Below are positions 17,427 through 41,292 of a stretch of DNA of 64,000 bases, piece by piece (position 1 is the first letter of the stretch; each line of letters begins with the position of its first letter). A program made the position numbers and the translations under genes. The notes beneath the pieces were generated by a model. The model ran no database searches, was not told where the DNA came from, and worked only from the letters and a program-made list of their open reading frames with translations. This stretch comes from an uncultured Pseudomonadales bacterium. Its GTDB lineage: Bacteria > Patescibacteriota > Microgenomatia > UBA1400 > MFAQ01. The stretch is from assembly GCA_964439805.1 (NCBI GenBank), contig CAYTOI010000001.1, forward strand, positions 67,573 through 131,572, read 5' to 3'.

Positions 17427-17822
17427 GTGGCTATGAAACGTCTTTTTACCCTATTGTCCCTTATTTTGGTTGTTTTCTTGTCACCTACTAAAACCTTTGC
17501 AGCTGATCCGTATTGCACACAGGGAGATCCTAGCTCTGGCATTCAAACTGCCATTGGCTGTATTTCCACAAGCGCCGAAGGATCAGGTGGATTTTTTGAA
17601 GCCATACTCAGAGTATTTGTGGGTATCGGTGGTGGACTCGCCCTTTGCCTTATGCTTTATGGAGTTTTTATTGTCACTACCTCAGCCGGTATCCCCGACA
17701 AGCTCAAAGAAGGCAGTGAAATAATAACTTCCACCATAGCCGGCCTTATTTTTATCCTCCTTTCCGTCTTTTTACTCAATCTTATTGGCATTAATATTTT
17801 GGGTCTTCCGGGATTAAAATAA
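17427..17822 (+). CDS. TrbC/VirB2-like T4SS pilin family protein
   Basis: Signal peptide, two TM helices and an inter-helix SAGIPDKLKEGSEIITSTIAGL segment equivalent to the GGDK-N-K motif of the downstream paralogs. Confidence 0.55.
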   Translation: MAMKRLFTLLSLILVVFLSPTKTFAADPYCTQGDPSSGIQTAIGCISTSAEGSGGFFEAILRVFVGIGGGLALCLMLYGVFIVTTSAGIPDKLKEGSEIITSTIAGLIFILLSVFLLNLIGINILGLPGLK

Positions 17823-17826
17823 ACTT

Positions 17827-18177
17827 ATGAAATTAATTCCATTATCTTTTGCAGCAGACGAGGCAGATATTTCAAGCCTTTACAATCCCGCCAAAAATTT
17901 TTCAAATTTAGGCAAAAATGGCAAAGTTTCTGATCTATTCAAGTCTGGAAACGGACTAGACGTCATTAATCTTATTTTTATCATTATTGGCATTCTGTTC
18001 TTTGCTAACCTAGTTATGGCTGGCTGGGATTACATGCTCAGTTCTGGAGATCCAAAAAAGGCAGCTGTGGCCAGCACCCGTATAACTAATGGTCTTACCG
18101 GCCTAGTTATGGCCTTTACTGCATATTTAATAGTCAAAATCATCTCCTCTTTACTCGGTTTAGGTGTTAATATCTAA
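17827..18177 (+). CDS. TrbC/VirB2-like T4SS pilin family protein
   Basis: Two TM helices flanking SGDPKKAAVASTRITNGLTGL. Paralog of the 20358-22986 array. Confidence 0.6.
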   Translation: MKLIPLSFAADEADISSLYNPAKNFSNLGKNGKVSDLFKSGNGLDVINLIFIIIGILFFANLVMAGWDYMLSSGDPKKAAVASTRITNGLTGLVMAFTAYLIVKIISSLLGLGVNI

Positions 18178-18180
18178 AAA

Positions 18181-19167: not shown

Positions 19168-19218
19168 TCCAGAAGATATTCAACATCTTGAGATCTTGAG
19201 TTCTTGATTTCTTGAGTT

Positions 19219-20328
19219 TTACATCTCCCTCTCAACCATGTATCTCGCTATCCCCTCCAAGTAATCTATCGCCTCACTATTCAATTTTAACTTTCTGAGT
19301 TTCTGGATTGTTTCTATAGATTTTTCATTTAAATCTCTTGCCACTTTTACAGAATAATCATACGAACCACTTTCCTTAATTGCTTTCTTTGCCAAATCAA
19401 CATCTTTTTCATTAGCTGCTTTTTTACCCCAAACTTTCATAACAGATTCCTTCTGCTCTTCCGTCCCCAATTCCAACACTTTTACAATCAGCAGTGTCAC
19501 TTTGCCTTGCAACAAATCCGAATTTGCTGATTTTCCTGTTTTTTCTTCATCACCAAACAATCCCAAGATGTCATCTTGGAGTTGAAAAGCTACTCCACCA
19601 AACTCAGAATATTCTCTCAAAACATCTTTTACCTCTTCCGACAAGTCGGCAAGTATTGCTCCAATAATTAGAGGGTTTTCGTAAGTATAAATTCCCGTTT
19701 TTGCTCTATGCAAACTCATTACTTTTTCTTCTGTCATTTCTCCTAAGTTTGGCAAACTCACATCATAAGCCTGGCCAAAAGCAGTGTTCGCTATTCCTCG
19801 GAGCATCTGTTTCATGGCTGCTATTAAGTTCTTTTCCTCAAATCCAGAGTCCAAAATTCTCTCGTATCCCAAACACAAAACCGAGTCTCCAATATTTACC
19901 GCCATCGACTCCCCAAAGTGTTTATCTTCTTTTCCAAAAAATACTTGTGTTGTCGGCTCTCCTCTTCTGACAAGATCTTCGTCCATAAAATCATCATGCA
20001 TAAGCAAAGCCGTATGAACCAATTCAACTCCTTCCGCCACCTTCCATATATCCCCACCTTTTGTCTTAAGTTCTTGATTCCTTGAGTTTTCGAGTTCTTG
20101 TAGTTTGTATCCCCAAACCACAAACCCTGCTCTCGCCCTCTTTGCCGATCTCAAATTGTGCTCCTTGGCGTGCAAAAGCATCTCTCTAACCATTTTTTTC
20201 TGAGTCTCGTTGTAACCAAAATTTTTACCCAACTCAATATCCCAATACTTTTCCAGCCTCAAATCCATATCCTTAGCCAAAGCAACTAATTTTGTTTTGG
20301 CAGATAATCCTAGTTCATTTTTTACCAT
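19219..20328 (-). CDS. Polyprenyl diphosphate synthase (IspA/IspB family)
   Basis: First Asp-rich motif LLMHDDFMDED and second motif FQLQDDILG. Carries an in-frame octamer-repeat insertion at 20066-20102 (ELENSRNQELKTK). Confidence 0.85.
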   Translation of the reverse strand: MVKNELGLSAKTKLVALAKDMDLRLEKYWDIELGKNFGYNETQKKMVREMLLHAKEHNLRSAKRARAGFVVWGYKLQELENSRNQELKTKGGDIWKVAEGVELVHTALLMHDDFMDEDLVRRGEPTTQVFFGKEDKHFGESMAVNIGDSVLCLGYERILDSGFEEKNLIAAMKQMLRGIANTAFGQAYDVSLPNLGEMTEEKVMSLHRAKTGIYTYENPLIIGAILADLSEEVKDVLREYSEFGGVAFQLQDDILGLFGDEEKTGKSANSDLLQGKVTLLIVKVLELGTEEQKESVMKVWGKKAANEKDVDLAKKAIKESGSYDYSVKVARDLNEKSIETIQKLRKLKLNSEAIDYLEGIARYMVEREM

Positions 20329-20357
20329 TGTCTGTATTTTACTGTAAAATAGATGAT

Positions 20358-20672
20358 ATGTTTATCAAGCAAGCTTTAGCTGATTCACTCACTAGCTACT
20401 ACCCTCCATCCACAGCTTTGGGTGCTAATAAAGTAAAGCTATCATCAATTTTAAATCCACTAATCGCCAACGCCCTTATCATCTCGGGGCTTGTAGCCTT
20501 TTTTGTCATCCTTTTTGCCGGTTTTAGCTATATTTCTGGAGCTGGAGACAAAAACAAAATGGCCCAATCCACCAACATGCTTACTTACGCTATACTAGGA
20601 TTAGTTGTCGTCGCCTCCGCCTTTTTGATTACTAGGATTCTTGGCACAGTCCTCGGCTTCAAGTTTTTTTAA
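20358..20672 (+). CDS. TrbC/VirB2-like T4SS pilin family protein (array member 1)
   Basis: Two TM helices around SGAGDKNKMAQSTNMLTYAILGL. ATG 20358 is preferred over 20292, which overlaps the upstream gene. Confidence 0.6.
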   Translation: MFIKQALADSLTSYYPPSTALGANKVKLSSILNPLIANALIISGLVAFFVILFAGFSYISGAGDKNKMAQSTNMLTYAILGLVVVASAFLITRILGTVLGFKFF

Positions 20673-20674
20673 AC

Positions 20675-21043
20675 ATGAATATCTTTAATCTCATCTCAAA
20701 ACCAGTTTATGCAGCCGCTGACGTAGTAGGAACAATCACCCTCCCTGCTGGTGTACCTTCCGAAGTGGTCAAAACCGGTTCATTTTTTAGTGCTATTGTT
20801 CGCTTGATGATGGTAGTTGGAGGTATTTTTACCCTTTGGCAATTTCTTTCTGGAGGTTTTGAATACATCTCTTCAGGTGGAGACAAAACAAAAATCGCCA
20901 ATGCCACCCAAAAACTTACCATGAGTGTCACAGGTTTAGTGGTCATGACGGGAAGTTTTCTGATTATTTCCATTATCAGCAAAGTTCTCTTTGGTAGTTT
21001 TACTGCTATTCTAAATCCATCATTAACACGAGTAACTCCATGA
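20675..21043 (+). CDS. TrbC/VirB2-like T4SS pilin family protein (array member 2)
   Basis: SSGGDKTKIANATQKLTMSVTGL between two TM helices. Confidence 0.65.
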   Translation: MNIFNLISKPVYAAADVVGTITLPAGVPSEVVKTGSFFSAIVRLMMVVGGIFTLWQFLSGGFEYISSGGDKTKIANATQKLTMSVTGLVVMTGSFLIISIISKVLFGSFTAILNPSLTRVTP

Positions 21044-21456
21044 TTAACTTCATTAGCGGTTTTATTGTCAAGTCTGCTTATGCAATTACTGAGCCAGATA
21101 GTCCGTATATGACATCAGATGGCTCTACAAGTCTTGGGGCCATTACAGGAACTGGTCAATTCCAAAATATTCTAGGAGGACCAGAAACATTACTTGGCAA
21201 ATTCCTTTCCACCCTAATAACCACAATGACCATCTTTGGATCTCTCGCTTTTGTAGTTTATTTCAGTCTAGGAGCTCTTACCTGGATCACCGCTGGCGGA
21301 GACAAAGCAAAAATTGGATCAGCTCAAAGCCAAATGACTCAAGGGGCTGTTGGTTTAATTGCCATAGTCGCCTCTTATTTCATCATTGGCATAGTTGGCA
21401 ATGTCTTAGGACTAAATATTCTCAATCCTATTAAAATGTTAAATTTAATTAACTAA
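21040..21456 (+). CDS. TrbC/VirB2-like T4SS pilin family protein (array member 3)
   Basis: TAGGDKAKIGSAQSQMTQGAVGL. 4-nt overlap with the upstream gene suggests an operon. Confidence 0.65.
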   Translation: MINFISGFIVKSAYAITEPDSPYMTSDGSTSLGAITGTGQFQNILGGPETLLGKFLSTLITTMTIFGSLAFVVYFSLGALTWITAGGDKAKIGSAQSQMTQGAVGLIAIVASYFIIGIVGNVLGLNILNPIKMLNLIN

Positions 21457-21457
21457 A

Positions 21458-21778
21458 ATGGACGAAATTGTAAACAACGCGATTCCTGCAACTGCCTTAT
21501 CCAAAGGTTATGGTGGAGGTCTTGCTTTTTATATCGCCACTCTCTGGAAAACCGTAGTCACAGTTGGAGGTCTCGCTTTTATCATCTACCTCGTCTGGGG
21601 TGGCATAGAGTATCTCACTTCAGGTGGTGACAAAAATAAAATCGCCGACGCCACAACAAAAATAACCAGCTCTGTTATAGGTGTAGCTATACTCGTAGCC
21701 TCTTATGCCATCACCCTCTTCATCCAAGGTGTCTTCAAAATTAATATCCTTAACCCCATCTTTCCTAATAATCTATGA
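21458..21778 (+). CDS. TrbC/VirB2-like T4SS pilin family protein (array member 4)
   Basis: TSGGDKNKIADATTKITSSVIGV. Confidence 0.65.
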   Translation: MDEIVNNAIPATALSKGYGGGLAFYIATLWKTVVTVGGLAFIIYLVWGGIEYLTSGGDKNKIADATTKITSSVIGVAILVASYAITLFIQGVFKINILNPIFPNNL

Positions 21779-22095
21779 ACAACACTAGTGTAAACATTGG
21801 CGCAGAAACAGCTGGTTTTTTTGGCTACACTTGTATTGGTCACCTAGTCAGCAATCTCGTCGCTGCAGCCTTTATCATTGCAGGAGTTGCCTTTTTTGTT
21901 TATTTGGTTTGGGGCGGAATTCAATATCTCACCTCCGGAGGAGACAAAACTGGTACTGGAGATGCTCAAAAAAAGATTGCCGCTGCTTTTATCGGCCTCA
22001 CCATTGTTGCTTCCAGTTGGGCTGTTTATCAGCTAGTTATCTACTTCTTTGGAATCAACTTGAACAGTTTGTGCACAGCTAACCCAGTCGGTTAA
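21775..22095 (+). CDS. TrbC/VirB2-like T4SS pilin family protein (array member 5)
   Basis: TSGGDKTGTGDAQKKIAAAFIGL. Confidence 0.65.
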   Translation: MNNTSVNIGAETAGFFGYTCIGHLVSNLVAAAFIIAGVAFFVYLVWGGIQYLTSGGDKTGTGDAQKKIAAAFIGLTIVASSWAVYQLVIYFFGINLNSLCTANPVG

Positions 22096-22145
22096 AATGT
22101 AATATAATATAGATATAGCAATTATTAATTTATAAACACAAAAAT

Positions 22146-22490
22146 ATGTCCCTAATCCCCCAAGTCTACGCTGCTGCAAGTGGAACCATAGGTATTCCTC
22201 AACCATCAGGTATGAAAATCACCGATATTGGTGTCCTTATTTCTAGAACCATTTCTGTCGTCTTTATTATCGCTGGTATTATGACCTTTGGATACTTAGT
22301 TATGGGTGGTATCACCTGGCTCACCGCCGGTGGAGACAAAGCCAATACCGAAAAAGCCAGAGCTATCATCACCAATGCTGTCATCGGTCTTGCCATTATC
22401 GCCGCTTCCTGGGCTCTAATGAAACTCATCTCCTACTTCCTTGGAGTTGACGTCTTCGAAGGCAATATCAATATCCCCAAGCCTTACTAG
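22146..22490 (+). CDS. TrbC/VirB2-like T4SS pilin family protein (array member 6)
   Basis: TAGGDKANTEKARAIITNAVIGL. Confidence 0.65.
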   Translation: MSLIPQVYAAASGTIGIPQPSGMKITDIGVLISRTISVVFIIAGIMTFGYLVMGGITWLTAGGDKANTEKARAIITNAVIGLAIIAASWALMKLISYFLGVDVFEGNINIPKPY

Positions 22491-22557: not shown

Positions 22558-22629
22558 ACAAACAAACTCACCATCTTGAGTTTTTGAGTTCTTGAGTTTT
22601 TGAGTTCTATATTATTGTAAAATAAAACC

Positions 22630-22986
22630 ATGTCTTTCAATTTTATTCCTCAAGCACACGCAGCCGGTTTTACAGCAGGTGATCAATGGCAAGGTGCCGG
22701 ATGTGCTCAAGATGGAGTCGCCACCATAGGCGGAATTCAGTGTCTAATTGGTAATGTTTTAGTTATCATTCCTTCAATGTTAGTATTGGCCGCTGTGGGA
22801 ATGATTATCTTTGCTGGTATAAAAATAATTAATGCTGGGGCAGACACAAAAGCTTACGCAGCAGGCTGGAATACTTTTTACTACGCCGCCATCGGTTTGG
22901 TACTTCTTTCTGTCGTTTGGTTTGTAATAGTCTTAATCCAAAACTACACCGGAACAAACATTACCGAATTTGGAATTCCAAATTAA
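22630..22986 (+). CDS. TrbC/VirB2-like T4SS pilin family protein (array member 7, divergent)
   Basis: Two TM helices with NAGADTKAYAAGWNTFYYAAIGL, a degenerate form of the motif. Confidence 0.55.
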   Translation: MSFNFIPQAHAAGFTAGDQWQGAGCAQDGVATIGGIQCLIGNVLVIIPSMLVLAAVGMIIFAGIKIINAGADTKAYAAGWNTFYYAAIGLVLLSVVWFVIVLIQNYTGTNITEFGIPN

Positions 22987-22988
22987 CC

Positions 22989-25900: not shown

Positions 25901-26102
25901 AGGCTACGACGACCCCTACGTAGTAGAACTCTGGAAAAAACAACACGAAAAAATGTATGTTCTCTATCAATACGACTGTACCCAAACTCCTCCAATAAAC
26001 CAAAACAGACTAGGAACCTTTACCTTTGCAGTTAGTTTTTATCAATCAAACGCAGATCCTTCTAGTGGACCAAGTACTGCTGTTCCAGCACAAGCCCAAT
26101 GA
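22989..26102 (+). CDS. Large secreted cysteine-rich protein (probable surface or pilus-associated protein)
   Basis: ~1037 aa from GTG 22989, which immediately follows the upstream stop. N-terminal signal/anchor LIIFFLIIFDCLIIF, many Cys, no internal TM. Directly downstream of the pilin array. Confidence 0.55.
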   Translation: MKKSLIIFFLIIFDCLIIFQHNKLVFAAQEVTNPNPTPTSSTYQPTSINAPQNPAPPLIGNTPCGNTVCLENEVCVMYPADKDEHCVPVDIDPSAISADPIKNKLEDCNKLIGNNQSVFPPNSKCWNNTVMVQSDLSKFDKTCIYQPVIKYTDTRYLKTKGSVPGFEECGNGNNPFGGSPPGDSKQDKCYVGVLVYTDVRDATLGSYGPDEKTIQENSGDYLAQNYLYNSLFGRPNTTVGANKESYRTYWRLIPAENQANLRSFTLNMSKQGLMENTNFEFDGKSEKTDLVDLYDQLSKQITVFLHPPFIRIGCLTDYPVCPEFAKAISDFNTPVSDTIAFVNNFPFPIVLEEVLNYFGSITDDTNQKLATKYSSFVPLDFSSVRSYIFRKPTEETESKIYNGELDGLSSFNGKLVDGLNQPRYGTNKPLLNSITSESTPYVGAIYQGLMSPKFGLINSLHPQWLIETYTNPEESVLYDYSAGNTPSDYPEVKIAKKNLIERAISEAKLLLKNPLSWAADILLGNKNFNEFNDTALLPKGYNEPRVENKKTDVKNYYQNMLDCPLPVSYHISAPFTANLSKDPLKSVSKDDHHQVIYIRGNNVKWDFDPEKWEIVEDKVDPKTGITYQVVNRCPKNDEHFQKDGEPNTCYKRRWQLTAIEKGNALTVLNNPKQSDIKKSVVSEAKFSLYNTLLPSTLSVKKITEANIDAPIARNFVSQNGGGDAVGPAGEAEMLNPAEPINRVNNFAQDSVHLLQNCWSVPDNLQNSPRCKIALTDASASACTGEKFKELIGDNNLNISEKGKQLYSLVESKLTDDLITAYAEAEKQTGVPCEVLAGIHYREADNSPTQDLQSGAPLGGRSLTESAIQAANELLGKAGGKIGDIDTLIKALSWYNGGGNANCQPTTSCSAIKNNRCGSKVACDNLPSTATSAEVKSACSCGVEAGSCRSQCNSGYPFLIPTSPGLCPPPSIGYDDPYVVELWKKQHEKMYVLYQYDCTQTPPINQNRLGTFTFAVSFYQSNADPSSGPSTAVPAQAQ

Positions 26103-26668
26103 AAAAATACTACAAAATAATTATTTCAATATTTTTTGTATTTATTATTATCTTTATGACTTTTTGGTTAACAAAACCAAAAGACTCAAAAAACTTTTTT
26201 ATAAACTCGGTTCCTTTTTTAAGCAATGACAGCAACAAACTCCCTACTCCTACCCCCACAGAATCATTTAATGGTAGTGGAATACCAGCTCAAACAAACT
26301 ACAAAAAAGTAGCTGACCAAATAACTAGTGAAGTTTCATCAATTGAAAAAGAAAAAATAATTGATATCCTCCCAGTCAGAATTAACAATTTCGATTCTGG
26401 AACACAAATAAAAACAACCATCAATGTTTTTACCTTAGCGTCAGACCCTCCCCAATCAGTTAGAATAGAAATTTACGGACCAAACTTCAACAACTCTAGC
26501 TTGACCAGTCAAGACGCCTTTGCCTTCAAAAATTCTTTCAATGAAATTAAAAAGGTGTTTGCAAAAAACAATGTAAATCTTAATAATCTTCAAATTATCT
26601 ACGGCAATCGCCAATATATCCAAGATACGGCCACTTTCTGGGTAAAAGAATTCAAACTTCTAGACTAA
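26099..26668 (+). CDS. Membrane-anchored hypothetical protein
   Basis: 189 aa with an N-terminal TM. 4-nt overlap with the upstream gene. Confidence 0.5.
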   Translation: MKKYYKIIISIFFVFIIIFMTFWLTKPKDSKNFFINSVPFLSNDSNKLPTPTPTESFNGSGIPAQTNYKKVADQITSEVSSIEKEKIIDILPVRINNFDSGTQIKTTINVFTLASDPPQSVRIEIYGPNFNNSSLTSQDAFAFKNSFNEIKKVFAKNNVNLNNLQIIYGNRQYIQDTATFWVKEFKLLD

Positions 26669-30810: not shown

Positions 30811-33800
30811 TTATATCATTTTTAAGCCTAGAATCTGGAAAAACTTAATGGTATTCGCCCACTGATTAGGATAATTCTTCCTGAGCTCCACATCGTCAAC
30901 AAGTCTACCGGCTAGGCACAAATCTGACAACATCTTGTCGGCTTTATCTGGACTTTCTTCATTTATTACCCTTTCTAAATATGAATACCCCGCATCAACC
31001 ATATCTCTGACTAGTCTCATTTGATCCACTCTAGAAAAGGTGTCTTTTCCTCTTAGCTTTTCAAGCCTACCTAACTCCTGAAGCTGTCTAACAACAAAAT
31101 CCCTTTTATTGTTTTCTCTTTCATTTTTTTTATCTTTAACTTCAACAAACCCAAAATAACCCATTATTTTTTGCTTTGCTAAATCAACTGTAAAATTTTC
31201 ATCCGGTTTATTACTTTTTACAACCGTAATTGCACTCAATAAACTTTTCTGAATCCCATCACTTTCAGACTTGGCTATTTTGGACAAATCAATCCCCCTC
31301 TTAATTAATTTTTCTCTAGCTTCATAGTATTCCTTGTTTCTGTTTATACCTGAAGTACCAGCTTCCAATTCATCAAACAGCTTTTGATCCCAAACCTTCT
31401 CCTCCTCCACCTTTTCTTTAATTACTACTTTGACTTTATTTTCAACAGACTCTTTATTGATTTCAACAACCTCTGGTTGATTATCCAAATTTTCTCCATG
31501 CATTATTTTCCTGGCTTTCGCCAAGTACTCAACTTTTATATTAGATTTTTCTAAAGTCGGTAAAATTTTAGACCATTTTTCAATAAAATCTTTTTCATTC
31601 ACATCTTCGTTGTTTAGCAAAAAATAATTTTCAATCCTAAATATCAACATATCTAATTCGTTTGAAGTATCCCGACGATCTCCTTTTTTCCATAATATTT
31701 TCACCCCAAAAGACTCAAGTCTGTCCAGTGCTTCTTTGTATTCAGATTTTTCATTTTCACTGTAAACAACCCGTAGATCTTTCAGCAAACCATCCTTGTA
31801 ATAATTTACTACTTCAACATTATTTTTTTCAAATTCTTTTACAACTCTCCCCTCTTTTGTATTTTTCACCACACTTTCAACCACATCACGAATCTCAAGT
31901 ATTTTTTTTATAAAATTTTCTGCATTTTCTCTCTTTTTACCCCAAGCAACAAAATTATTTTCCTTGATTGCTTTTAGTGCCAATTTATAAGATTCATAAT
32001 CAACACCATCCTTGTCAAATTTTGGCAAGTTAATTCCATGACTACTAATTCTTTCTACAGCACTTTGAACATCTTCAATATTTCCATTTTCCACCAACCA
32101 CAAATCATTATACAAACCTTCGTAACTCTCAGGCTTATCTACCATCTCAACATTTTTAGGAATATTTTTTAATTCCAAAATACCACCATGTCTATATTTT
32201 CTAGCATTTTCTATTCTAGAAAAATCACTTATGCCATTTTTTGTTAACAAATATTCCAAATCATCTATTTTTTCAAAATTACCATCAGATTTCAAATACG
32301 AATCTAGTAAATCAACCAGCTCTTTACCTAACAAGTAATCTGTTATTTTGGATTTATCATCTACGGATCTATCCTTTTCAATCTTACCTACTTTAAATTT
32401 CCCCAATCTTTCAAACGAATCTTTTTTATTTTTTTTAAGTATTTCTAAGGATGTCTCATCACCACCTACTTCCGACGGTCTTGTGTATATTGTTTTTAAG
32501 TCAGATATTAGTCCATCAATCTTGGCAAAATAAGCATATTCTTGTTCCAGTTTTTTAGGCACAAATTCTCTTATCAGTACCTCCTGAGGAAGGGAGTCGC
32601 TTTTATCTTTCTGTGAAGAATTTGAATCCAAATTTTTAATTTCTTCACTTTCCAACACAATACCTTTACTAATAAGATAATCACTCAAAGAAAAACCAAA
32701 ATTCCCGTCAAAGGGCTTACTTTCTAATCTTGACACCAATCTATCAGATACAAACATCCTAACTGCTTTCCCCTTAATAACTGTTTTATCTTTAAAAGCT
32801 TCCTCTATAGGCATTCCTTGATTTTCTTTTTTCAAAAAATCATACAAAGAGGTTGGATTTTCAGCCACAACTTCCATAAAATCAAAGACAAAACTTTTAT
32901 CAATCACAAAAAACGAACCTATTTTACCAACCTTCTTAGAGTCCGTATTATCAACTACTAAGTTCGTAATGTTTACAACTACTTTGTTAGCAAAGTCCAA
33001 ATCTTTCTCTTTTAGATACTTCTCAACATCATTACTTAATATAGAAATTCTTTCACCTTCACGAATTGGAGGCTGAATGACAAATTTTTCAAAAGTATCT
33101 ATCCTCACACAAGAATAATTCTCTTCATCCAAAAAGGATTTTTCTTTGTTTATTTTTGCCTTACTTTCATGTCGCTGATTCAGTTCTCTGATTACTTCAA
33201 AAAAAGAATTATTTTTATCAAATTCATTATTCAAATCTACATTTAAAACGCTATCGTAAACAACAACTTCAATATTTCTTTTTTCTTTTTTTTCATCCTC
33301 TTCATCAACAATTTCGACCTCCAGCATTTTTTCAACTACCAAACTTTCTTGTTCCATTTTCTTCAGGTTATCCCCCAAGAATGTTTTTAACTCATCACTC
33401 ATTGTCGACACATCAAATTTATCGGCTTGAGAATCTAGTTCATCAATCAACATTCTTACTTTTTCCACGATTAATCCACTTAAATCTTTTGAATAAATTA
33501 AATTTCCTTTCTGATCTATATACATCTTTACCCCCAAAAGGTTCAAATTAAAACCATTATTAATTAACGGATCAAGATCAAAAGATGTCGGTTCTTTTAA
33601 AAATATTTCCAAAGAATCCTTCAAATCTTCAGCTTCAAATTCCATAGGTTCAACATCTTCTGACAAAACAACCTCAAACTCATTCTCTTGCTCATTAATT
33701 TTATTGTCTTTTAAAAATTTTTCAAAACCTTCTTCAGATTGCACTTGATTCAAAACTAAAAGTTCTTTCCAGTTCGGAACCTCGTCATCCTCACCATCAG

Positions 33801-33921
33801 CGCCATTTGCAAAAGCATCAGATTCATGTAAATCTTCATCCGACGTGCTTTTACCTCGAATTGTTTTTTTTTCAGTTTTCTTTTTTTTGTAATCCCAATC
33901 TTTTTCTACTTCAACAGCCAT
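30811..33921 (-). CDS. Giant acidic hypothetical protein (no TM, no recognisable domain)
   Basis: 1036 aa intact ORF. 10-nt spacing to the downstream gene suggests an operon. Highly charged and probably cytoplasmic. Confidence 0.6.
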   Translation of the reverse strand: MAVEVEKDWDYKKKKTEKKTIRGKSTSDEDLHESDAFANGADGEDDEVPNWKELLVLNQVQSEEGFEKFLKDNKINEQENEFEVVLSEDVEPMEFEAEDLKDSLEIFLKEPTSFDLDPLINNGFNLNLLGVKMYIDQKGNLIYSKDLSGLIVEKVRMLIDELDSQADKFDVSTMSDELKTFLGDNLKKMEQESLVVEKMLEVEIVDEEDEKKEKRNIEVVVYDSVLNVDLNNEFDKNNSFFEVIRELNQRHESKAKINKEKSFLDEENYSCVRIDTFEKFVIQPPIREGERISILSNDVEKYLKEKDLDFANKVVVNITNLVVDNTDSKKVGKIGSFFVIDKSFVFDFMEVVAENPTSLYDFLKKENQGMPIEEAFKDKTVIKGKAVRMFVSDRLVSRLESKPFDGNFGFSLSDYLISKGIVLESEEIKNLDSNSSQKDKSDSLPQEVLIREFVPKKLEQEYAYFAKIDGLISDLKTIYTRPSEVGGDETSLEILKKNKKDSFERLGKFKVGKIEKDRSVDDKSKITDYLLGKELVDLLDSYLKSDGNFEKIDDLEYLLTKNGISDFSRIENARKYRHGGILELKNIPKNVEMVDKPESYEGLYNDLWLVENGNIEDVQSAVERISSHGINLPKFDKDGVDYESYKLALKAIKENNFVAWGKKRENAENFIKKILEIRDVVESVVKNTKEGRVVKEFEKNNVEVVNYYKDGLLKDLRVVYSENEKSEYKEALDRLESFGVKILWKKGDRRDTSNELDMLIFRIENYFLLNNEDVNEKDFIEKWSKILPTLEKSNIKVEYLAKARKIMHGENLDNQPEVVEINKESVENKVKVVIKEKVEEEKVWDQKLFDELEAGTSGINRNKEYYEAREKLIKRGIDLSKIAKSESDGIQKSLLSAITVVKSNKPDENFTVDLAKQKIMGYFGFVEVKDKKNERENNKRDFVVRQLQELGRLEKLRGKDTFSRVDQMRLVRDMVDAGYSYLERVINEESPDKADKMLSDLCLAGRLVDDVELRKNYPNQWANTIKFFQILGLKMI

Positions 33922-33988: not shown

Positions 33989-34066
33989 CGTCATTGCGAA
34001 TCACGAAGTGCTTAAGCAACCCCCGACTCGGAGATTGCCACGTCGTTTCACTCCTCGCAATGACGC
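33989..34066. promoter_or_regulatory. 78-nt palindrome in the divergent intergenic region (two inverted copies of the GTCATTGCGA..GGCAATC repeat)
   Basis: gtcattgcga at 33990-33999 and tcgcaatgac at 34056-34065 flank two inverted repeat-family-3 copies. Lies between divergent genes 30811..33921 (-) and 34077.. (+). Confidence 0.5.
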
Positions 34067-34076: not shown

Positions 34077-35033
34077 ATGGCCATCCAACAACACCCAGTA
34101 CCCCAAGACATCAGTAACTACCGATTCCGGCTAATCGGCGACATGACTATTAAACAATTCTCCTCTTTGGGAATTTGTATAGTTCTCACGGTCATTATTT
34201 ACAGCTCCCCTCTACCTTTTTTCTTCAAATATCCTCTCTCCTTTGCCTTTTTGGCTCTTGGAGTAGGCATGGCTTTTATTCCTGTGCAAGGTAGAACTTT
34301 AGATGTTTGGATCCTTGCTTTCTTTAAATCTATCTACGCCCCCACTCAATATATTTGGAAACACGGCCAAGATGTTAATAATAACCCGATTACAACTACT
34401 ACAACACCAGTAACAGAACCAGTAAACACTCCATCCACACCTGTAGTCCCAGTTTCCACTCCTACAGCCGAACCAATTCCTGAGCAAACTCCACAACCAG
34501 AAGAGATGGCGAAATCAGCACAACAACCAGTACCCACTGTGGAACCAGTTGCAGAAACAGTAGTAGTACCAGAATCTAAAAATATAGAGATACCCGCCAC
34601 CGAAGTCACTCCAGTAGAAACAAAAACTGAAACACCTATATACACCCCAACAGACAATAACTCGACTCAATCAAGTCCAATTCCAGCTTCTGAACCAACT
34701 ATAAACAACACTCCAGTCCCCAATAATCCTATTAACAACGAAGTATCCAGTCTTCCCATTCCTTTTACCCCATCCACGCCAAACACTTTAGTGGGACTAA
34801 CCCTTACTCCAGATGAAAAAATTCTAGATGGTGTACTTATTGAAATAAAAAGCCAAAACCTCACTCTCCGAGCCACCAAAAGTAACAAGCTTGGCCAGTT
34901 CCTTTTTGCTCGCCCACTAGAAAACGGCCTCTTCCAAATTCTTGCTGAAAAAGATGGCTATAGCTTTGAAGCTTACAGTATCAATCTCACCGGAGAAATT
35001 GTTAAACCTTTAAAAATCCAAGCAATCAAATAA
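34077..35033 (+). CDS. PrgI/VirB3-like membrane protein with Thr/Pro-rich C-terminal extension (putative)
   Basis: The N-terminal ~100 aa have two TM helices (FSSLGICIVLTVIIY..LSFAFLALGVGMAFI) like PrgI/TcpE/VirB3-type proteins. The rest is Thr/Pro/Glu-rich low-complexity sequence. Confidence 0.4.
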   Translation: MAIQQHPVPQDISNYRFRLIGDMTIKQFSSLGICIVLTVIIYSSPLPFFFKYPLSFAFLALGVGMAFIPVQGRTLDVWILAFFKSIYAPTQYIWKHGQDVNNNPITTTTTPVTEPVNTPSTPVVPVSTPTAEPIPEQTPQPEEMAKSAQQPVPTVEPVAETVVVPESKNIEIPATEVTPVETKTETPIYTPTDNNSTQSSPIPASEPTINNTPVPNNPINNEVSSLPIPFTPSTPNTLVGLTLTPDEKILDGVLIEIKSQNLTLRATKSNKLGQFLFARPLENGLFQILAEKDGYSFEAYSINLTGEIVKPLKIQAIK

Positions 35034-35034
35034 T

Positions 35035-35694
35035 ATGCCAGCCGAAGTAATAAAAGCCTCCACCCAAGAACATCTCGATATTTACACTATCAAAAATCAT
35101 CTAGTCTTTCTCAAAGATGGTTCCTGCTCCCTCGTTCTCAAAACCACAGCTCTAAACTTCAACCTTCTCTCCGAAGAAGAACAAGACGCCACTATCTACA
35201 CTTATGCCGGACTTCTTAACTCTCTCTCCTTTTCTATTCAAATTCTCATTCGTTCTCAGCGTAAAAATATTTCCGACTACATCACGCTTCTCGACAACAG
35301 TATTCAAGGAACCTCTTCACAAAAAGTAAAGGAGTCTCTCCTTTCTTATCGTCAGTTTGTTAAGTCTCTCGTCAAGGAAAACAGAGTCTTAGAAAAAAAA
35401 TTCTTCGTAATTATTACTTTTTCAGCTATTGAGCTTGGTATTACCAAGTCCACTTTCAACCCCTTCAGTAAAGATCCTCAAAAACCTCCATATGACCTGG
35501 ACTACATAGAAGAAAAAGCTTCCATGGTACTCTACCCACGAAGAGATCACATTATTCGTCAATTTGCTCGTATCGGACTAAAAACCAGTCAACTTACCAC
35601 CACCGAACTTGTAACTCTTTTCTACTCTATCTACAACCAAAGCAGTTCTAGTCCTCTAATTTCCGATCAAATAACTTTCAACGAGCACCAATAA
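35035..35694 (+). CDS. Hypothetical protein, T4SS-locus associated
   Basis: 219 aa soluble ORF immediately upstream of the VirB4-like ATPase. Confidence 0.5.
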   Translation: MPAEVIKASTQEHLDIYTIKNHLVFLKDGSCSLVLKTTALNFNLLSEEEQDATIYTYAGLLNSLSFSIQILIRSQRKNISDYITLLDNSIQGTSSQKVKESLLSYRQFVKSLVKENRVLEKKFFVIITFSAIELGITKSTFNPFSKDPQKPPYDLDYIEEKASMVLYPRRDHIIRQFARIGLKTSQLTTTELVTLFYSIYNQSSSSPLISDQITFNEHQ

Positions 35695-35720: not shown

Positions 35721-37631
35721 ATGGCTTTTAATTTATTTAATCTTGGCCAAAAACGCAGCACAGCAGTGCTAAGTCCCGACTCACAGTCGGGAGCCACAAC
35801 TTCTATTCCAGAGGTTTCATCTTCCATATCTGATACCTCCACTCCTCCAATCAAAACCATAGACAAAAACATTGCTCCTCAAGACAACAACATCCAAGAC
35901 ACCATTGCCCCATCTGCCATAGAAGTCGATTTTTCTTTTATAAAAATCGATGATACATATGTCCGCACTCTCTTTGTCACTGGCTATCCTCGCTACGTCA
36001 CTGCTAACTGGCTGTCTCCACTGATTAACTTCAACCACTCTCTAGATGTCTCCATGTTTATTTATCCTAGTGACTCCAAAGATACACTCGAAAGTCTCAG
36101 AAGAAGAATTGCCGAAATGGAAGCAGAAATAAATACAGATATCCAAAGAGGTCGTGTCCCCAGAGCCGCAACTGAGGCCGGTCTAGAAGATGCCAAAGCA
36201 CTTCAGTCTCAACTAGTAAAAGGTGCTGAAAGATTTTTTCAATTCTCTTTGTACCTTAGTATCTCTGCTGAAACAGAAAAAGACCTGAACACCACCACTT
36301 CACAAGTTCAATCCATGCTTGCTTCTCTCCTAATCATCAGCAAAACCGCTTCTCTCACCATGGAAGACGCATTCAAAAGTACCCTTCCCTACGCCAAAGA
36401 CAGATTAATGATTACGAGAAATATGGACACCACTTCATTGTCCACCACTTTTCCATTTACAAGTTCCGAACTCTCTGACAACAAAGGAATTCTCTATGGA
36501 CTTAACGCCCACAACGACTCTCTCGTAATTTTTGACCGCTTTTCTTTAGAAAACGCCAACATGCTTATCCTTGCTACTTCTGGTGCTGGAAAAAGTTACA
36601 CTGTAAAACTCGAAATTCTCAGATCTCTTATGTTTGACACTCGTGTCATTATTCTAGACCCAGAAAATGAGTATGAAATGGTTACCAAGTCAGTTGGCGG
36701 TAACTATATTTCCTTCTCCATCAACTCCCCTCACAAAATAAATCCTTTTCAAATAGCCAAACCCCAAGAAAGTAGTGAAGACGAAATGGGATACAAATAT
36801 CTATTTCTCATGTCTCTTCTCAAAATTATGATTGGTGAAATGAATCCAATAGAAGAAGCCACCATGAACCGTGCCCTTGTTCTCACCTATCGCCAAAAAG
36901 GAATTACCGAAGACCCTGCCACCCACGTTCTCGAAGCCCCAAGAATGGAAGACCTTTACCGTTCCCTTATAGGTATGGAAGAAGCGGTAAGCAAAACTCT
37001 ATCCGCCCGTCTTGAACGTTTCGTCATGGGTTCTATTAAAGGAATCTTTGACCAGCAAAGTAATATAGATATCGACGCTCCTATTACTGTTTTCTCGATG
37101 CGAGATATAGCCGACGAAATTCGTCCCATTGTCATGTTTAACATTTTAGATTTTGTCTGGACTCAGGTAAGAAAAGATCTTCGCAAAAGGATGTTGGTAG
37201 TTGACGAGGCTTGGTATTTGATGCGCTACGAAGATTCCGCAAAGATTCTCCAAGGTTTTGTAAAAAGAGCCCGCAAGTATTATCTTGGTGTCTCCATTAT
37301 TTCTCAAAATGTTGACGACTTCTTGGGTTCTCCGTATGGAAAGGCAATTATCACAAACTCCGCTCTCAAAATGCTACTCAAGCAGTCTCCTGCGGCTATC
37401 AATCAAATTGCCGAAGTCTTTTATCTTTCTCAAGGAGAAAAGCAACTACTTCTTTCCGCTGGTGTCGGTGAAGGAATCTTTTTTGCCGGTATGAACCACG
37501 TAGCTATACGCATAATCGCTTCTCCAGACGAACATGCCCTCGCTAGTACCAAACCAGCCGAAGTCCTCGCCCGTCAAAAAGCTGCTGCCGACCAAAAGCT
37601 CGCCGAAGAAAAAACTCAACCTAGTATCTAG
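35721..37631 (+). CDS. VirB4/TrbE/PrgJ-family conjugative type IV secretion ATPase
   Basis: Walker A LILATSGAGKSYTVK, Walker B RMLVVDEAWYLM, and an N-terminal region with the TGYPR-type motif (FVTGYPRYV) typical of VirB4-family proteins. Confidence 0.85.
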   Translation: MAFNLFNLGQKRSTAVLSPDSQSGATTSIPEVSSSISDTSTPPIKTIDKNIAPQDNNIQDTIAPSAIEVDFSFIKIDDTYVRTLFVTGYPRYVTANWLSPLINFNHSLDVSMFIYPSDSKDTLESLRRRIAEMEAEINTDIQRGRVPRAATEAGLEDAKALQSQLVKGAERFFQFSLYLSISAETEKDLNTTTSQVQSMLASLLIISKTASLTMEDAFKSTLPYAKDRLMITRNMDTTSLSTTFPFTSSELSDNKGILYGLNAHNDSLVIFDRFSLENANMLILATSGAGKSYTVKLEILRSLMFDTRVIILDPENEYEMVTKSVGGNYISFSINSPHKINPFQIAKPQESSEDEMGYKYLFLMSLLKIMIGEMNPIEEATMNRALVLTYRQKGITEDPATHVLEAPRMEDLYRSLIGMEEAVSKTLSARLERFVMGSIKGIFDQQSNIDIDAPITVFSMRDIADEIRPIVMFNILDFVWTQVRKDLRKRMLVVDEAWYLMRYEDSAKILQGFVKRARKYYLGVSIISQNVDDFLGSPYGKAIITNSALKMLLKQSPAAINQIAEVFYLSQGEKQLLLSAGVGEGIFFAGMNHVAIRIIASPDEHALASTKPAEVLARQKAAADQKLAEEKTQPSI

Positions 37632-37633
37632 AC

Positions 37634-40240
37634 ATGTCCGACCAAAGCCTAAATATATTTTCCCTGGAAACAGCAAAGAGTTTGCTGGCAGGCAAAGTAG
37701 ATCTTCAAGTTCTCAAACCAGCAGAAATATCGTTTATTTCCAAAGCCCACAACCTTTTCTTAAATTATTTTTCAGCTATCCATCCTAGTGCCACAATCGA
37801 TCCTCTTTATGAAGACTTTAATTATTTTGTAGAACATAGAGATCTCGGAGAAATACAGGCAATAATTAATTTTTTATCCAGACCTCAAGAAGGAGAAAAA
37901 CAAGAACAAACAAGAGAAGTAAAAAAAGAAGATATTTCTATTCCTGTAGAACTAGAGGCAATGGTTGCCATGTACAAGCAGCACCAAGCTGACCTTGTAG
38001 ACAACGAAAGACCAAACTCCCTAGCTGAAAATATCAAAAGGGCTCAAAAAACCATCAACGAAAGAAGAAAATACGATCTTATTTATGAAAACGCGAGCAA
38101 AGAAAGGCAAAAGGAATTAGATAGACAGAAGGAAATATCTGATCGACTCTACTCTCAAATAGTAAATCCCAAAAAATCAAGATCAGAATTAACTCAAAAT
38201 ACTCGCAACCTTGCATCCTTTCTCGTTCTTTCTCAAAGTGAAAATAAATTAAACCAATCACAATACGACGAAGCTGTTAAACAAATAGTCAATATTGCTG
38301 AGACTGGTGGTCTGGATGTAACAGATGAAAAATCACTTTATGACATTAGTTATTCCATAGTAAATAGCTTCACCAATGAAAATAAAGAATTAGAGGAATT
38401 AAATGTATTAGTCCAAAAACAACTAAAGGCAGAAGCATTAGGGTTAGACACTGATGAGTACAACAAAAAAATAGACTCTTTAGCTGAGTTTGTAGAAGAT
38501 AAAGAGAACAAAAAAGACAAAAAAGATGATAAATCAAATAGAGACATATTTTCAGAAAAATTATCAGTCAAAAAGACAAACCAAGACAAATCTATACCCG
38601 ACCCAGATGTACTCATAGGAGAATCGCAAAAAGAGATTAATAATATCACTCAAAAACTAAGTAAAAGATTCCCAAGTGCCAAAAACCCATACCAAGAAAC
38701 TGACTTTTTAGCTCAAAATGCCAAAGCAATCGAAAAGGCCATATTAGCCACTGACAGAACTGCCCTTAGCCCTATTCCTGTAGGCTTAGGTGCCAGAACA
38801 TCAGCCACGCTCAAAGAAACTGGAAGTAATGCTCTCAACCCTGTAGTTGTTGACTTGTACAGTAGAGGGTTAACTCCAGAAAAATACAAAAAACTAACAG
38901 AAGACAAAAACTCACCTTTTAATCAATTACTTAACAAACAACCTGAATTAAGAAAAAGAATCGAAAATGGGATAAGGGTTGTCAGTAATTCGCCAGACGG
39001 AAAAACTATTGCAGAACAATTAAAACCAGTTTCTAGGTTAGAGTCTTACCTCCCTACTAGTATCCAAAAGGCTCTTCACCCAGTAAAAACTATAGAGGCA
39101 GCAGTAAACAAACGTATTGGTGAATATGGAGGAAAGGTGTTGAACAAAACGTTCGGAAAAGCTCTTGGAGGAAAACTAGAGAAATACATCCTCAAAGACG
39201 GAATTCAAGTAGGTGCCAAAAAATTAATAGATAAGGCTGCTGTAAAAGTAATCACTGCTGGAGCTGAAAAAATTGGTTTAAAAGTAGTCGGAACCGCAGC
39301 CACCAAAACTGCTCTTGCCGCCGCTGCAACGGCATTGGGTATATCCACTGCAGGTTTGAGTTTAATTCTGACAGCTGCTTGGTTTGTTGTTTCAGAAGGG
39401 TTTAAAAAAATTAAATCTGTCTTTCAAGATACTTTTGGTGTCACCGATAAAGACATCAAAGATTTTGCAGTTGGCGCAGGTATAGGTTTGGTCGGAATGT
39501 ATTATGGAGCCAGAACTGGTGTAAAAGTATTTGCCGTCGCCACCAAAGCAGCTGTCATTTCCGCCGCCGGCATTATCTGGCTTTCCATAGCCACTGTTGC
39601 AGTTTTCTTAACTCTCACTTTCCTCGTTGCTCCCATTCTCTCTACCTTAGTACAGTTCGATTCTGTCGAGAAAGTCCAGTACGGAACAGTTGCAGAAGAT
39701 CAAACAGCCAGCTGCAAAGGTAAGGAATTAAAAAACGATAAGAAAAAATGTAATGGAAAGTATTGTTTTCCTGTTGGAGATACCGGTACCGTTTCATACC
39801 TCACTTACCATCATGACTACCCAGCTAATGACATTATGCGCATCGGAGACAAGCCAGGAAACAGTGATGACGTTCCACTCCCCTTACTAGCATACACAAG
39901 CGGTTACGTTTTGAATGCAACCGAAGACCCTGTGGGAGGATTAAGTATTTTAATTGCAGGTGATGATGGTAGATTTTACTATTACGCTCACAACATGTGT
40001 AACACAATAAAATCTGGAAACAGAGTAGAGGCGGGAACTATCATTGGGGGTATGGATACTTCAGGTAATGCAAATGGATACTTGGAACATCTACACTTTC
40101 ATATAAGTACAAAACCCGACATGAGAACTATCCCAGAAAACTACCCAAACTTTATTTGGCCATACGAAGATTTTTGTAACAAAGTTAATATTTGTGGATC
40201 TCTTAACCCAGAGGTTTACCCTGAACTACCATACCTATGA
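37634..40240 (+). CDS. T4SS-associated cell-wall hydrolase: coiled-coil / TM / C-terminal M23 (LytM) peptidase domain
   Basis: 868 aa. The C-terminus (YYYAHNMC..GNANGYLEHLHFHIS) matches M23 peptidase Zn-binding motifs. A central hydrophobic block has 3-4 TMs and the N-terminal half is predicted coiled coil. Confidence 0.7.
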   Translation: MSDQSLNIFSLETAKSLLAGKVDLQVLKPAEISFISKAHNLFLNYFSAIHPSATIDPLYEDFNYFVEHRDLGEIQAIINFLSRPQEGEKQEQTREVKKEDISIPVELEAMVAMYKQHQADLVDNERPNSLAENIKRAQKTINERRKYDLIYENASKERQKELDRQKEISDRLYSQIVNPKKSRSELTQNTRNLASFLVLSQSENKLNQSQYDEAVKQIVNIAETGGLDVTDEKSLYDISYSIVNSFTNENKELEELNVLVQKQLKAEALGLDTDEYNKKIDSLAEFVEDKENKKDKKDDKSNRDIFSEKLSVKKTNQDKSIPDPDVLIGESQKEINNITQKLSKRFPSAKNPYQETDFLAQNAKAIEKAILATDRTALSPIPVGLGARTSATLKETGSNALNPVVVDLYSRGLTPEKYKKLTEDKNSPFNQLLNKQPELRKRIENGIRVVSNSPDGKTIAEQLKPVSRLESYLPTSIQKALHPVKTIEAAVNKRIGEYGGKVLNKTFGKALGGKLEKYILKDGIQVGAKKLIDKAAVKVITAGAEKIGLKVVGTAATKTALAAAATALGISTAGLSLILTAAWFVVSEGFKKIKSVFQDTFGVTDKDIKDFAVGAGIGLVGMYYGARTGVKVFAVATKAAVISAAGIIWLSIATVAVFLTLTFLVAPILSTLVQFDSVEKVQYGTVAEDQTASCKGKELKNDKKKCNGKYCFPVGDTGTVSYLTYHHDYPANDIMRIGDKPGNSDDVPLPLLAYTSGYVLNATEDPVGGLSILIAGDDGRFYYYAHNMCNTIKSGNRVEAGTIIGGMDTSGNANGYLEHLHFHISTKPDMRTIPENYPNFIWPYEDFCNKVNICGSLNPEVYPELPYL

Positions 40241-41292
40241 TATTCAAAAAAATAAATAGTAAATATTTCTACATTGGTTCAACGATTCTAATGTTAATTA
40301 TCATTTTTATTTTTAGTACAAAAAATAAAATAATCACAACAAAAAACAACAATACTGAGCCTATCATCCCCACCCAATCAATAAAGAGCTCAAAAGACAT
40401 TGCTTTGTCTGATGTAATACCTGCAGCAAACACCACTCCATTTAACCTAGGAAATTACTCTATAAAAAACAAAAAGCTTATTTTTACCCTACCAGAGGGA
40501 AATGGCTACGAAGTTGATACAAACAGTGAACCTGTATCTGATTTTAAAATCAATGGCAATTCTCTAATCATTACCACTGGTGAAGTTTATTCCACACCAA
40601 GCGCATACTATATTCACGACATCACCACTGCAAATACTTACAAAATGGAAATTAATAAAGTAAAACCAATTGTTGATATAACTGCATTTTCAGATATCAA
40701 AAATGTATATCTGCTGGGAAGCTATAAAAACAAAAACTACACTATGAGTTTGTATTCCAACGACCTGACTACTGGCAAAAACAGTTTAATACTCTCGAAC
40801 ATATCAAGAAATTATTTAAAATCTTTGGATAATGACAACCTAATTCTTGGAAAAGAAATCGACAAATCAGAACCTAATTTTTATTTTGATGTTTATGATG
40901 CCAAAAACACAAAATATCTCAAAAATAATGTTTTGACAGCAAAAAAAACTATATGTTCAAATAATGACTCAGTTTTCTATTTAAATTACAAAGACAATAA
41001 AATAATCCGTTTTAACTACAAAAAGATAGAAGAAAACATCCTAGATATTAATATCGATTCAGGAACACCTCTTACACTTTGCGACGACAATAGACTTACC
41101 ATATTGCAAACAAAAGAAAACAAAATAAAAATTCAAAACGTCTTCCTAAACAAACCTGATCAATCGAATAATAATGAATTCTCCCTAAAAGATAATCAAT
41201 TGTTTATTGAAGCTTTTTTAAACAACGGAACTCTGATATTTAAGTTCTACGACAAAACAGACAGATCTTATACTCTAGTAAAAGAAAACTAA
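40237..41292 (+). CDS. Hypothetical membrane-anchored protein, very AT-rich
   Basis: 351 aa, N-terminal TM, Asn/Lys-rich beta-type repeats. Markedly lower GC than its neighbours. Confidence 0.5.
   Translation: MIFKKINSKYFYIGSTILMLIIIFIFSTKNKIITTKNNNTEPIIPTQSIKSSKDIALSDVIPAANTTPFNLGNYSIKNKKLIFTLPEGNGYEVDTNSEPVSDFKINGNSLIITTGEVYSTPSAYYIHDITTANTYKMEINKVKPIVDITAFSDIKNVYLLGSYKNKNYTMSLYSNDLTTGKNSLILSNISRNYLKSLDNDNLILGKEIDKSEPNFYFDVYDAKNTKYLKNNVLTAKKTICSNNDSVFYLNYKDNKIIRFNYKKIEENILDINIDSGTPLTLCDDNRLTILQTKENKIKIQNVFLNKPDQSNNNEFSLKDNQLFIEAFLNNGTLIFKFYDKTDRSYTLVKEN

Follow-up and report, generated by a model that had tools for sequence, protein, structure and literature searches.

Whether the conjugation-type genes on a stretch of Candidatus Collierbacteria DNA (Patescibacteria, or candidate phyla radiation; Microgenomatia) form a mobile element or a fixed organelle of the chromosome, and what such an organelle might do, is the question raised by this locus. 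The whole stretch that was analysed, called the window here, is 64 kb long, has a GC content of about 38-40% and carries small housekeeping genes as in reduced genomes. It very probably holds a vertically inherited type IV secretion system (T4SS) of the Patescibacteria clade, seated in the Collierbacteria chromosome and descended from the conjugation machinery of monoderm bacteria (MPF_FATA). The system and its layout here have already been described, as Quiñonero-Coronel et al. 2025 (PMC12102498) and Wang et al. 2023 (PMC10633639) report the same architecture and conclusions. Domains were searched for with Pfam and NCBIfam in the plausible open reading frames (ORFs) of at least 94 aa across the whole 64 kb. 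For comparison, 80 loci were taken from a scan of one genome per GTDB species; their record titles name Collierbacteria, Woesebacteria, Beckwithbacteria, Shapirobacteria, Gottesmanbacteria and other Microgenomatia, with VirB4 identities of 53-91%.

The VirB4 ATPase gene (35721-37631, plus strand) encodes a protein of the MPF_FATA/CD1110 type. It scores 366.5 bits with the NCBIfam model NF045971 (conju_CD1110, built on Clostridioides CD1110 VirB4-like conjugal ATPases), above the equivalog cutoff of 325, and 97.5 and 22.6 bits with the Pfam families P-loop_TraG and CagE_TrbE_VirB, and it carries the Walker motifs SGAGKS (A) and VVDEAW (B). The best PDB match is 4AG5, the C-terminal domain of VirB4 from the Firmicute Thermoanaerobacter (E 2.5e-48), and TrwK of R388 is a distant relative (E 1.4e-6). 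By these matches the VirB4 is of MPF_FATA/Firmicute ancestry. An earlier note, written from the DNA letters without database searches, had recognised the ATPase and likened the gene set to Gram-positive conjugation machinery, and both readings are upheld by the CD1110 and 4AG5 matches. It had also named assignment of the ATPases to HerA/FtsK as a result that would speak against a T4SS; the VirB4 matches HerA at E 0.026 compared with 2.7e-109 for the VirB4 family, and in the coupling-type ATPase described below the TrwB_AAD_bind match is above its cutoff and the DUF87/HerA central domain match is weaker.

The alignment of the ATPase to the CD1110 model spans only positions 178-733 of 752. Directly upstream lies a 219-aa ORF (35035-35694, plus strand), overlooked in the component list of the earlier note, which encodes a TrsD-like protein, that is, a stand-alone VirB4 N-terminal domain (NCBIfam VirB4_plasma, positions 126-234, E 3.8e-7; TrsD, NF041427, E 4.9e-4). 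Because the ATPase ORF is without the N-terminus of the model and the upstream ORF matches this part along with TrsD, the VirB4 is, as read from sequence, split in the TrsD manner into an N-domain ORF and an ATPase body. The gene before it (34077-35033, plus strand) encodes a PrgI/VirB3-like membrane protein with two transmembrane segments, a Pro/Thr-rich linker and a C-terminal extension; residues 7-90 match PF12666 at 28.0 bits (cutoff 27), in agreement with the PrgI/VirB3-like protein first noticed there. The TrsD-like ORF is present in 78 of the 80 loci at 41-93% identity, and the PrgI-TrsD-VirB4 adjacency is intact in 75-78 of them, which answers the call for a synteny check in relatives. 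A 169-aa minus-strand ORF left of the pilin genes (8997-9506) also has a weak VirB3 match (E 0.007).

Nine small plus-strand ORFs encode VirB2-like pilins, two in a first block (17427-17822 and 17827-18177) and seven in tandem in a second (20292-20672, 20675-21043, 21040-21456, 21458-21778, 21775-22095, 22146-22490 and 22630-22986). All nine match PF18895 (T4SS_pilin) with E values of 1.2e-8 to 0.019 (1.7e-4 and 5.3e-7 for the first block), and the gathering score is exceeded in six. A hidden Markov model (HMM) built from the nine recovers exactly those nine among all window ORFs of at least 50 aa, with 101 and 110 bits for the first-block genes, so the original count of nine TrbC/VirB2-like pilins holds. 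Each has two hydrophobic helices with an SGGDK-type loop between them, conserved in the second-block alignment, and pairwise identity averages 25% with a maximum of 42% (15-42% within the seven-gene block). The blocks are separated by uppS, a minus-strand 116-aa ORF without annotation and a polyprenyl synthase (ispB-like) gene, and the corresponding genes of relatives likewise have orthologous pilin arrays upstream. In seven of the nine, the N-terminus is a short leader that closes with a [YFHL]A-[AD] type motif (for example MSLIPQVYA/AA, MKLIPLSFA/AD and MSFNFIPQAHA/AG), which suggests a common processing site; those starting at 21458 and 21775 have no leader. A SpoIID-domain protein with a coiled-coil N-terminus is encoded directly divergent from the first pilin gene (15584-17353, minus strand).

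Downstream of virB4, a plus-strand gene (37634-40240) encodes an 868-aa membrane-anchored M23 peptidase whose position and build are PrgK/TraG-like and which would take the VirB1 role. It has a charged 550-aa N-terminus, predicted transmembrane segments at about residues 560-676 and a C-terminal hydrolase domain (PF01551, 42.5 bits at residues 750-826), as expected from the M23 hydrolase with transmembrane segments reported before. The slot after VirB4 is filled in most loci by a 700-1200-aa protein with mid-chain transmembrane segments.

A TrwB/VirD4-like coupling-type ATPase is encoded at the right edge (61307-64000, plus strand, clipped by the window end), beside yidC2 and an SPFH gene. Its TrwB_AAD_bind match (26.4 bits, cutoff 20.5) bears out the VirD4/TraD-like ATPase proposed at this place; TraG-D_C falls just below its cutoff at 21.7 bits, and the VirD4-like model conju_CD1115 is matched at E 3.5e-7. 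Its PDB matches are TrwB (1e9r, E 1.8e-4) and DotL, with no others. Walker A and Walker B motifs are present, there is no transmembrane segment, and the orthologues are about 725 aa long. In 7 of the 80 loci, of Gottesmanbacteria type, orthologues with 44-48% identity lie directly upstream of prgI and divergent from it. These prgI-adjacent genes are the best evidence here that this type IV coupling protein (T4CP)-like ATPase is part of the system, which we infer from gene position.

The gene order argues strongly for a chromosomal fixture. Most of the 80 loci share the series pilins, large protein with an N-terminal transmembrane segment, VirB6-like protein, antisense large ORF, PrgI, TrsD, VirB4, hydrolase with transmembrane segments, bitopic protein, dnaN and dnaA. 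Within the 10 kb fetched around virB4, dnaN/dnaA were found in 58-61 of the 80 loci, and in the 40 loci listed they are downstream and convergent in all but one. VirB4 identity tracks taxonomy, the cluster occupies the same site in relatives, and the core genes (GC 0.38-0.46) do not differ from the flanks in GC content. Because this order recurs in most of the 80 Microgenomatia loci, the cluster is best read as a vertically inherited chromosomal organelle and not as an integrative conjugative element (ICE). The earlier note had come to the same view, that of a fixed system interleaved with housekeeping genes; uppS and the ispB-like gene do lie between the pilin blocks, and dnaN/dnaA adjoin the cluster.

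An integrated conjugative element or a decayed remnant of one, into which housekeeping genes were inserted later, would also account for a component set derived from conjugation machinery, and the antisense ORFs and a 351-aa ORF have a lower GC content (0.29-0.34). Three duplications of tRNA-Ser and transfer-messenger RNA (tmRNA) 3' ends at 7.5-12 kb resemble attachment (att) scars. The duplicates lie only 134-150 nt from the originals, however, and have no partner beyond the cluster, so they were rejected as att sites of the cluster. No integrase, recombinase, relaxase or replication module was found in the scanned ORFs of the 64-kb window, nor were long flanking direct repeats or att-type repeats, as the earlier note had supposed; a combination of att sites, integrase and relaxase, which it had named as decisive for an ICE, is thus lacking in the 64 kb. 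The window likewise has no membrane-anchored T4CP with a relaxase alongside the mating-pair genes, the combination taken to mark functional conjugation. The sole bracketing repeat, of 35 nt (17366-17400 and 44181-44215, 89% identical), was rejected as an att pair; it is a low-complexity tandem array of the heptamer ATCTGAN with a third copy at 54357, does not occur in relatives and would enclose dnaA and dnaN. With gene order and dnaN/dnaA position conserved across the class, an ICE origin in this sense is extremely improbable, and recent mobility of the cluster is effectively refuted.

It could also be that there is no single machine, and that the pilins with the large secreted protein, PrgI-TrsD-VirB4 and the distal TrwB-like ATPase are independent neighbours, the ATPase serving some other process. 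The cluster is indeed broken up by two antisense ORFs and by uppS and the ispB-like gene; a distance of 20 kb separates it from the T4CP-like gene, whose neighbours are yidC2 and the SPFH gene; and only 148 of 5,713 patescibacterial T4CP homologues are near virB4 (PMC12102498). The order of pilins, VirB6-like protein and PrgI-TrsD-VirB4 is nevertheless kept in distant Microgenomatia, and the T4CP orthologue is divergent from prgI in seven loci. VirB2-type pilins, moreover, depend on VirB4 for their extraction from the membrane, as textbooks state, and we consider a chance neighbourhood very unlikely. Somewhat easier to defend, but still unlikely, is a role in importing or exporting DNA, after the manner of Helicobacter ComB or archaeal Ced. 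Such a machine would need no canonical relaxase, would be driven by the TrwB-like ATPase as DNA motor and would scavenge DNA or trade it with the host. The Walker motifs of the TrwB/VirD4-like ATPase are intact and the VirB4 also matches CedB (E 1.4e-15). A ComFC-like gene (phosphoribosyltransferase with a double zinc ribbon; 10670-11368, minus strand) lies in the window, left of the pilins, and T4SS loci of the class ABY1 co-localise with comF, recG and radA (PMC12102498). The CedB score is, on the other hand, far under the conjugative VirB4 scores (366 and 255 bits), and no DNA-processing domain occurs in or beside the cluster. Southlakia epibionticum can dispense with comEC competence and with the T4CP homologue, but not with the T4SS (PMC12102498, PMC12857230).

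The Patescibacteria-clade T4SS preferred here is well documented. In a survey of 3,035 patescibacterial genomes, Quiñonero-Coronel et al. 2025 placed patescibacterial VirB4 in a monophyletic clade nested in MPF_FATA, with TrsD and PrgI adjoining virB4 (PMC12102498). The same survey reports PF18895 pilin arrays of 2-11 genes with about 25% identity, abundant in Microgenomatia, together with M23-domain hydrolases, a near-absence of relaxases, T4CP genes far from virB4, and T4SS loci close to dnaA, dnaN and rnpA; detectable VirB6 and VirB8 were scarce in Microgenomatia (PMC12102498). Transposon sequencing by Wang et al. 2023 found a homologous cluster and its pilins to be essential for epibiotic growth of S. 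epibionticum (PMC10633639), and a 2025 FEMS review regards the system as a new T4SS type and a possible pilus conduit for exchange with the host (PMC12857230). Our literature search for newer functional work on patescibacterial T4SS was without result. The window agrees with this clade, including the Southlakia genes SEML1_0006-0019, in its MPF_FATA VirB4 with TrsD and PrgI beside it, its divergent PF18895 array (nine genes, mean identity 25%), its M23-type hydrolase downstream of virB4, its lack of a relaxase, its far-away T4CP and the Microgenomatia proximity to dnaN, dnaA and rnpA. Nothing essential differs. The local details are a pilin array split by uppS and the ispB-like gene, two antisense charged ORFs before prgI, a Pfam-negative VirB6 candidate and the lack of a skew flip at dnaA.

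Among better-known systems, the Firmicute MPF_FATA group (pCF10 Prg/Pcf, the CTn2 CD1110 family, pGO1 Trs and pIP501 Tra) is alike in that the VirB4 passes the CD1110 cutoff and a TrsD is present as in pGO1. The order PrgI (VirB3), VirB4, wall hydrolase and bitopic protein is one that we take to equal prgI-J-K-L of pCF10, and a T4CP without transmembrane segments is also reported for pIP501, as TraJ. Unlike these systems, the window has no relaxase, no origin of transfer (oriT) and no PrgB-type adhesin. Its pilins are of the VirB2 type, which Gram-positive systems lack, and its system is chromosomal and vertically inherited whereas theirs are on plasmids or ICEs. The MPF_T VirB/VirD4 systems (Agrobacterium, R388 Trw) share two-helix VirB2 pilins, VirB3, VirB4, VirB6-like parts and a TrwB-like ATPase, but the window has no outer-membrane core (VirB7, VirB9, VirB10), VirB5, VirB8 and VirB11 were not detected in it, and its VirB4 is far from TrwK. 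The Rickettsiales rvh T4SS resembles it as a chromosomal, non-conjugative system of a reduced-genome, host-dependent bacterium with components scattered among housekeeping genes, and the VirB2 arrays of Bartonella and Anaplasma also consist of multiple divergent paralogues. These are MPF_T systems of the diderm kind, whose eukaryotic hosts and effectors are known, whereas that of the window is monoderm-type.

Several membrane proteins of the cluster have no annotation, and one of them is probably the VirB6 channel subunit. The best candidate is a 575-aa polytopic protein (26694-28421, plus strand) with a signal segment and about six or more transmembrane helices, which has an orthologue in the same slot of 33 of the 80 loci. 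Its 296 database relatives are all labelled hypothetical and none has a Pfam domain. Identification as VirB6 by sequence was rejected, as neither Pfam nor NCBIfam nor a search of a 25-sequence profile against PDB gave support; Pfam scans of the protein and 24 orthologues returned a single TrbL match (E 0.16). AlphaFold2, given a 46-sequence alignment, yields a model whose mean predicted local distance difference test (pLDDT) score is 71, with 80-96 in the membrane helices. When this model was searched with Foldseek against 350,542 PDB chains, the top three matches and that at rank 10 were TrwI/VirB6 chains of the R388 stalk complex 7o3v, with weak scores (E 0.07-0.55, probability 0.63-0.92, TM-score 0.19/0.32, up to 0.33). 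The candidacy follows from these structure matches, the topology and the fixed position, and is suggestive only, family membership not being demonstrated. The earlier description as a VirB6-like polytopic protein therefore stands as to topology but not as to family, for which the weak structural match is the one point in its favour.

Between the pilins and this protein lie two further plus-strand genes. The larger one (22917/22989-26102, the start at 22989 being taken from the gene call in locus L081) encodes a Cys-rich secreted or anchored protein of about 1037-1061 aa with an N-terminal transmembrane or signal segment and no match in Pfam, NCBIfam, PHROG or PDB. Orthologues were found by tblastn in 11 of the 80 loci, and the same slot in the other listed Microgenomatia loci holds a 580-1050-aa ORF with one N-terminal transmembrane segment. 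Its C-terminal module is conserved, with an invariant Glu in the motif GV.C..LA.IH..E ... YNGGGN. A profile of this module gives sub-threshold matches (E about 1) to g-type lysozyme, MltC and a GlcNAcase and no Pfam match, and on this basis the module may be lysozyme/SLT-like, which we put forward as a hypothesis only. The smaller gene (26099-26668) encodes a bitopic membrane protein of 170-189 aa with an N-terminal transmembrane segment; it has no family match in Pfam, NCBIfam or PHROG and no PDB chain was matched by sequence, and orthologues occupy the same slot in seven Collierbacteria loci.

After the hydrolase comes a 351-aa bitopic protein with an N-terminal transmembrane segment (40237-41292, plus strand, GC 0.29), in what we take to be the PrgL position of the pCF10 gene order. 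It has only two database relatives. About 40 loci have an N-terminal-transmembrane protein in this slot, 38 of which form one family; the window protein belongs to a separate four-member cluster and aligns to the 38-member family only at the transmembrane region. A VirB8/TcpC analogy found no support for it, the positional orthologues being of another family, the alignment covering the transmembrane region alone and PDB giving no match. The two bitopic proteins (26099-26668 and 40237-41292) are candidates for a VirB8/PrgL/TcpC-like component, which would have an NTF2-like extracytoplasmic domain; neither has a PDB sequence match.

Two highly charged ORFs without transmembrane segments lie on the minus strand between the VirB6 candidate and prgI (28536-30800, 754 aa; 30811-33921, 1036 aa; GC 0.32-0.34), and neither has a match in Pfam, NCBIfam, PHROG or PDB. 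Collierbacteria loci carry, in the same slot, a fast-evolving 13-member family that includes the 754-aa protein. Nearly all Microgenomatia loci have a large minus-strand ORF upstream of prgI, which in the seven Gottesmanbacteria-type loci is the T4CP orthologue. The 754-aa protein was rejected as a hidden relaxase or effector, since a 12-sequence family alignment gave no Pfam or PDB match and there is no Walker A motif; two database relatives were retrieved, and its AlphaFold2 model (pLDDT 44) was unusable and was not searched. The charged proteins of this slot may help the machine to recruit its substrates, or may themselves be substrates or effectors peculiar to the lineage. A broader proposal, that the Microgenomatia system holds core parts missed by HMM sets, namely the Pfam-negative VirB6 analogue, the Cys-rich protein with a cryptic lysozyme-like module and the charged cytoplasmic protein or proteins of the antisense slot, is rather doubtful.

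For a T4SS with the observed components and conservation, established T4SS biology suggests by analogy the following course. The M23 protein, and perhaps further hydrolases, would open or remodel the cell wall, and a VirB4 hexamer with its TrsD domain would be docked at the membrane by PrgI and the VirB6-like protein. VirB4 would then pull pilins from the membrane and drive their polymerisation to a pilus or conduit in contact with the host bacterium. Transfer at this interface would be non-conjugative, moving proteins, signals or host-derived molecules and not relaxase-piloted DNA, with the distal TrwB-like ATPase possibly acting as substrate receptor. Through their divergence in sequence, the nine pilins would lend variety to the exposed surface and thereby to the host range.

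Several points weigh against this course. A pilus, a substrate or an activity is yet to be seen in any Microgenomatia member, and the essentiality data come from another class, Saccharimonadia (PMC10633639); the T4CP homologue of S. epibionticum is non-essential (PMC12102498). The T4CP-like ATPase of the window has no transmembrane anchor and is 20 kb from the cluster, the case for VirB6 is weak, with E 0.07 and a TM-score of at most 0.33, none of the window proteins could be identified as VirB8-like, and the absence of a relaxase holds for the 64 kb, not genome-wide. Because the ComFC-like gene lies in the window, a DNA-related role may still be entertained. The earlier remark that the function is experimentally unresolved is still fair.

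The minus-strand genes dnaN (41293-42411) and dnaA (42738-44123; Bac_DnaA, 205 bits) lie outside the apparatus and are convergent with the T4SS genes; beyond dnaA, the plus strand carries rnpA, yidC and jag. The earlier note had placed the cluster around oriC, of which the dnaA/dnaN synteny and the DnaA boxes stand and a GC-skew sign change does not. Three one-mismatch DnaA boxes are found at 42489-42714 in the 326-bp dnaN-dnaA spacer and a perfect one at 44140, upstream of dnaA, against a density of about 0.25 per kb on both strands window-wide. Plus-strand GC skew is negative over the whole 64 kb (about −0.1 to −0.4) with no sign change at dnaA, and it is still negative on both sides of dnaA after genes are separated by strand. 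Other Collierbacteria loci also have skews of −0.17 to −0.30 on both sides of dnaA (no flip in L001-L020 and L051), whereas in most other Microgenomatia loci (L022-L079) the sign changes exactly at dnaA, from about −0.08 to +0.07. This leaves two readings for Collierbacteria: replication starts away from dnaA, or the strand bias arises in another way. With a start at dnaA, as in the sister lineages, transcription of the PrgI-VirB4 operon would meet replication head-on. In Collierbacteria, proximity to dnaA is not proximity to a skew-defined origin, which weakens the published gene-dosage argument there.

The patescibacterial T4SS is the first reported to be essential to its bearer and may be the conduit by which ultra-small epibionts exploit host bacteria. 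The window is one more Collierbacteria example and does not make the question of substrate or mechanism newly testable. Its additions are modest: a VirB6 candidate for Microgenomatia, where such proteins are rare in HMM surveys, a class-wide slot architecture that includes the antisense T4CP slot (7/80 loci), and the caution about dnaA and skew in Collierbacteria. They could aid future annotation and experiments.

The window also contains a number of repeats and RNA genes. The tRNAs and tmRNA are the sole Rfam matches in it. The 3'-end duplicates, which resemble scars of tiny or lost integrated elements, are those of tRNA-Ser(gga) (7573-7593/7713-7733), tRNA-Ser(gct) (9829-9849/9963-9983) and tmRNA with its terminator (11818-11874/11968-12024); near them, a stretch of 2.2 kb contains five tRNA-Ser genes, of which one has the unusual anticodon ACT. 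The ATCTGAN arrays have 4-5 units, all on the plus strand (17366-17400, 44181-44215 and 54357-54383), two of them in divergent-promoter spacers (SpoIID/first pilin and dnaA/rnpA); 10 matches were found where 0.5 are expected, and none at equivalent sites of relatives. An octamer, TCTTGAGT, forms tandem arrays of 2-5 units, on the plus strand save for one weaker match, at 3691-3713, 10812-10842, 19186-19216, 20064-20086, 22574-22604, 47306-47336, 47894-47916, 51928-51966, 52437-52467 and 54708-54722 (24 matches, 0.24 expected; none in 82 related loci). Several of these are intergenic, one being between pilin genes 8 and 9, and some are within minus-strand genes. A hairpin element resembling repetitive extragenic palindromes, GTCATTGCGA, with GCAATC, occurs at 19144, 22490, 33990-34064, 59727 and 63803 and has no Rfam match. 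Two copies are inside predicted coding sequences, one of them in the Pro-rich tail of the T4CP-like ORF, and the inverted pair upstream of prgI could form a structure with an 11-bp stem (−26.2 kcal/mol, z −3.2).

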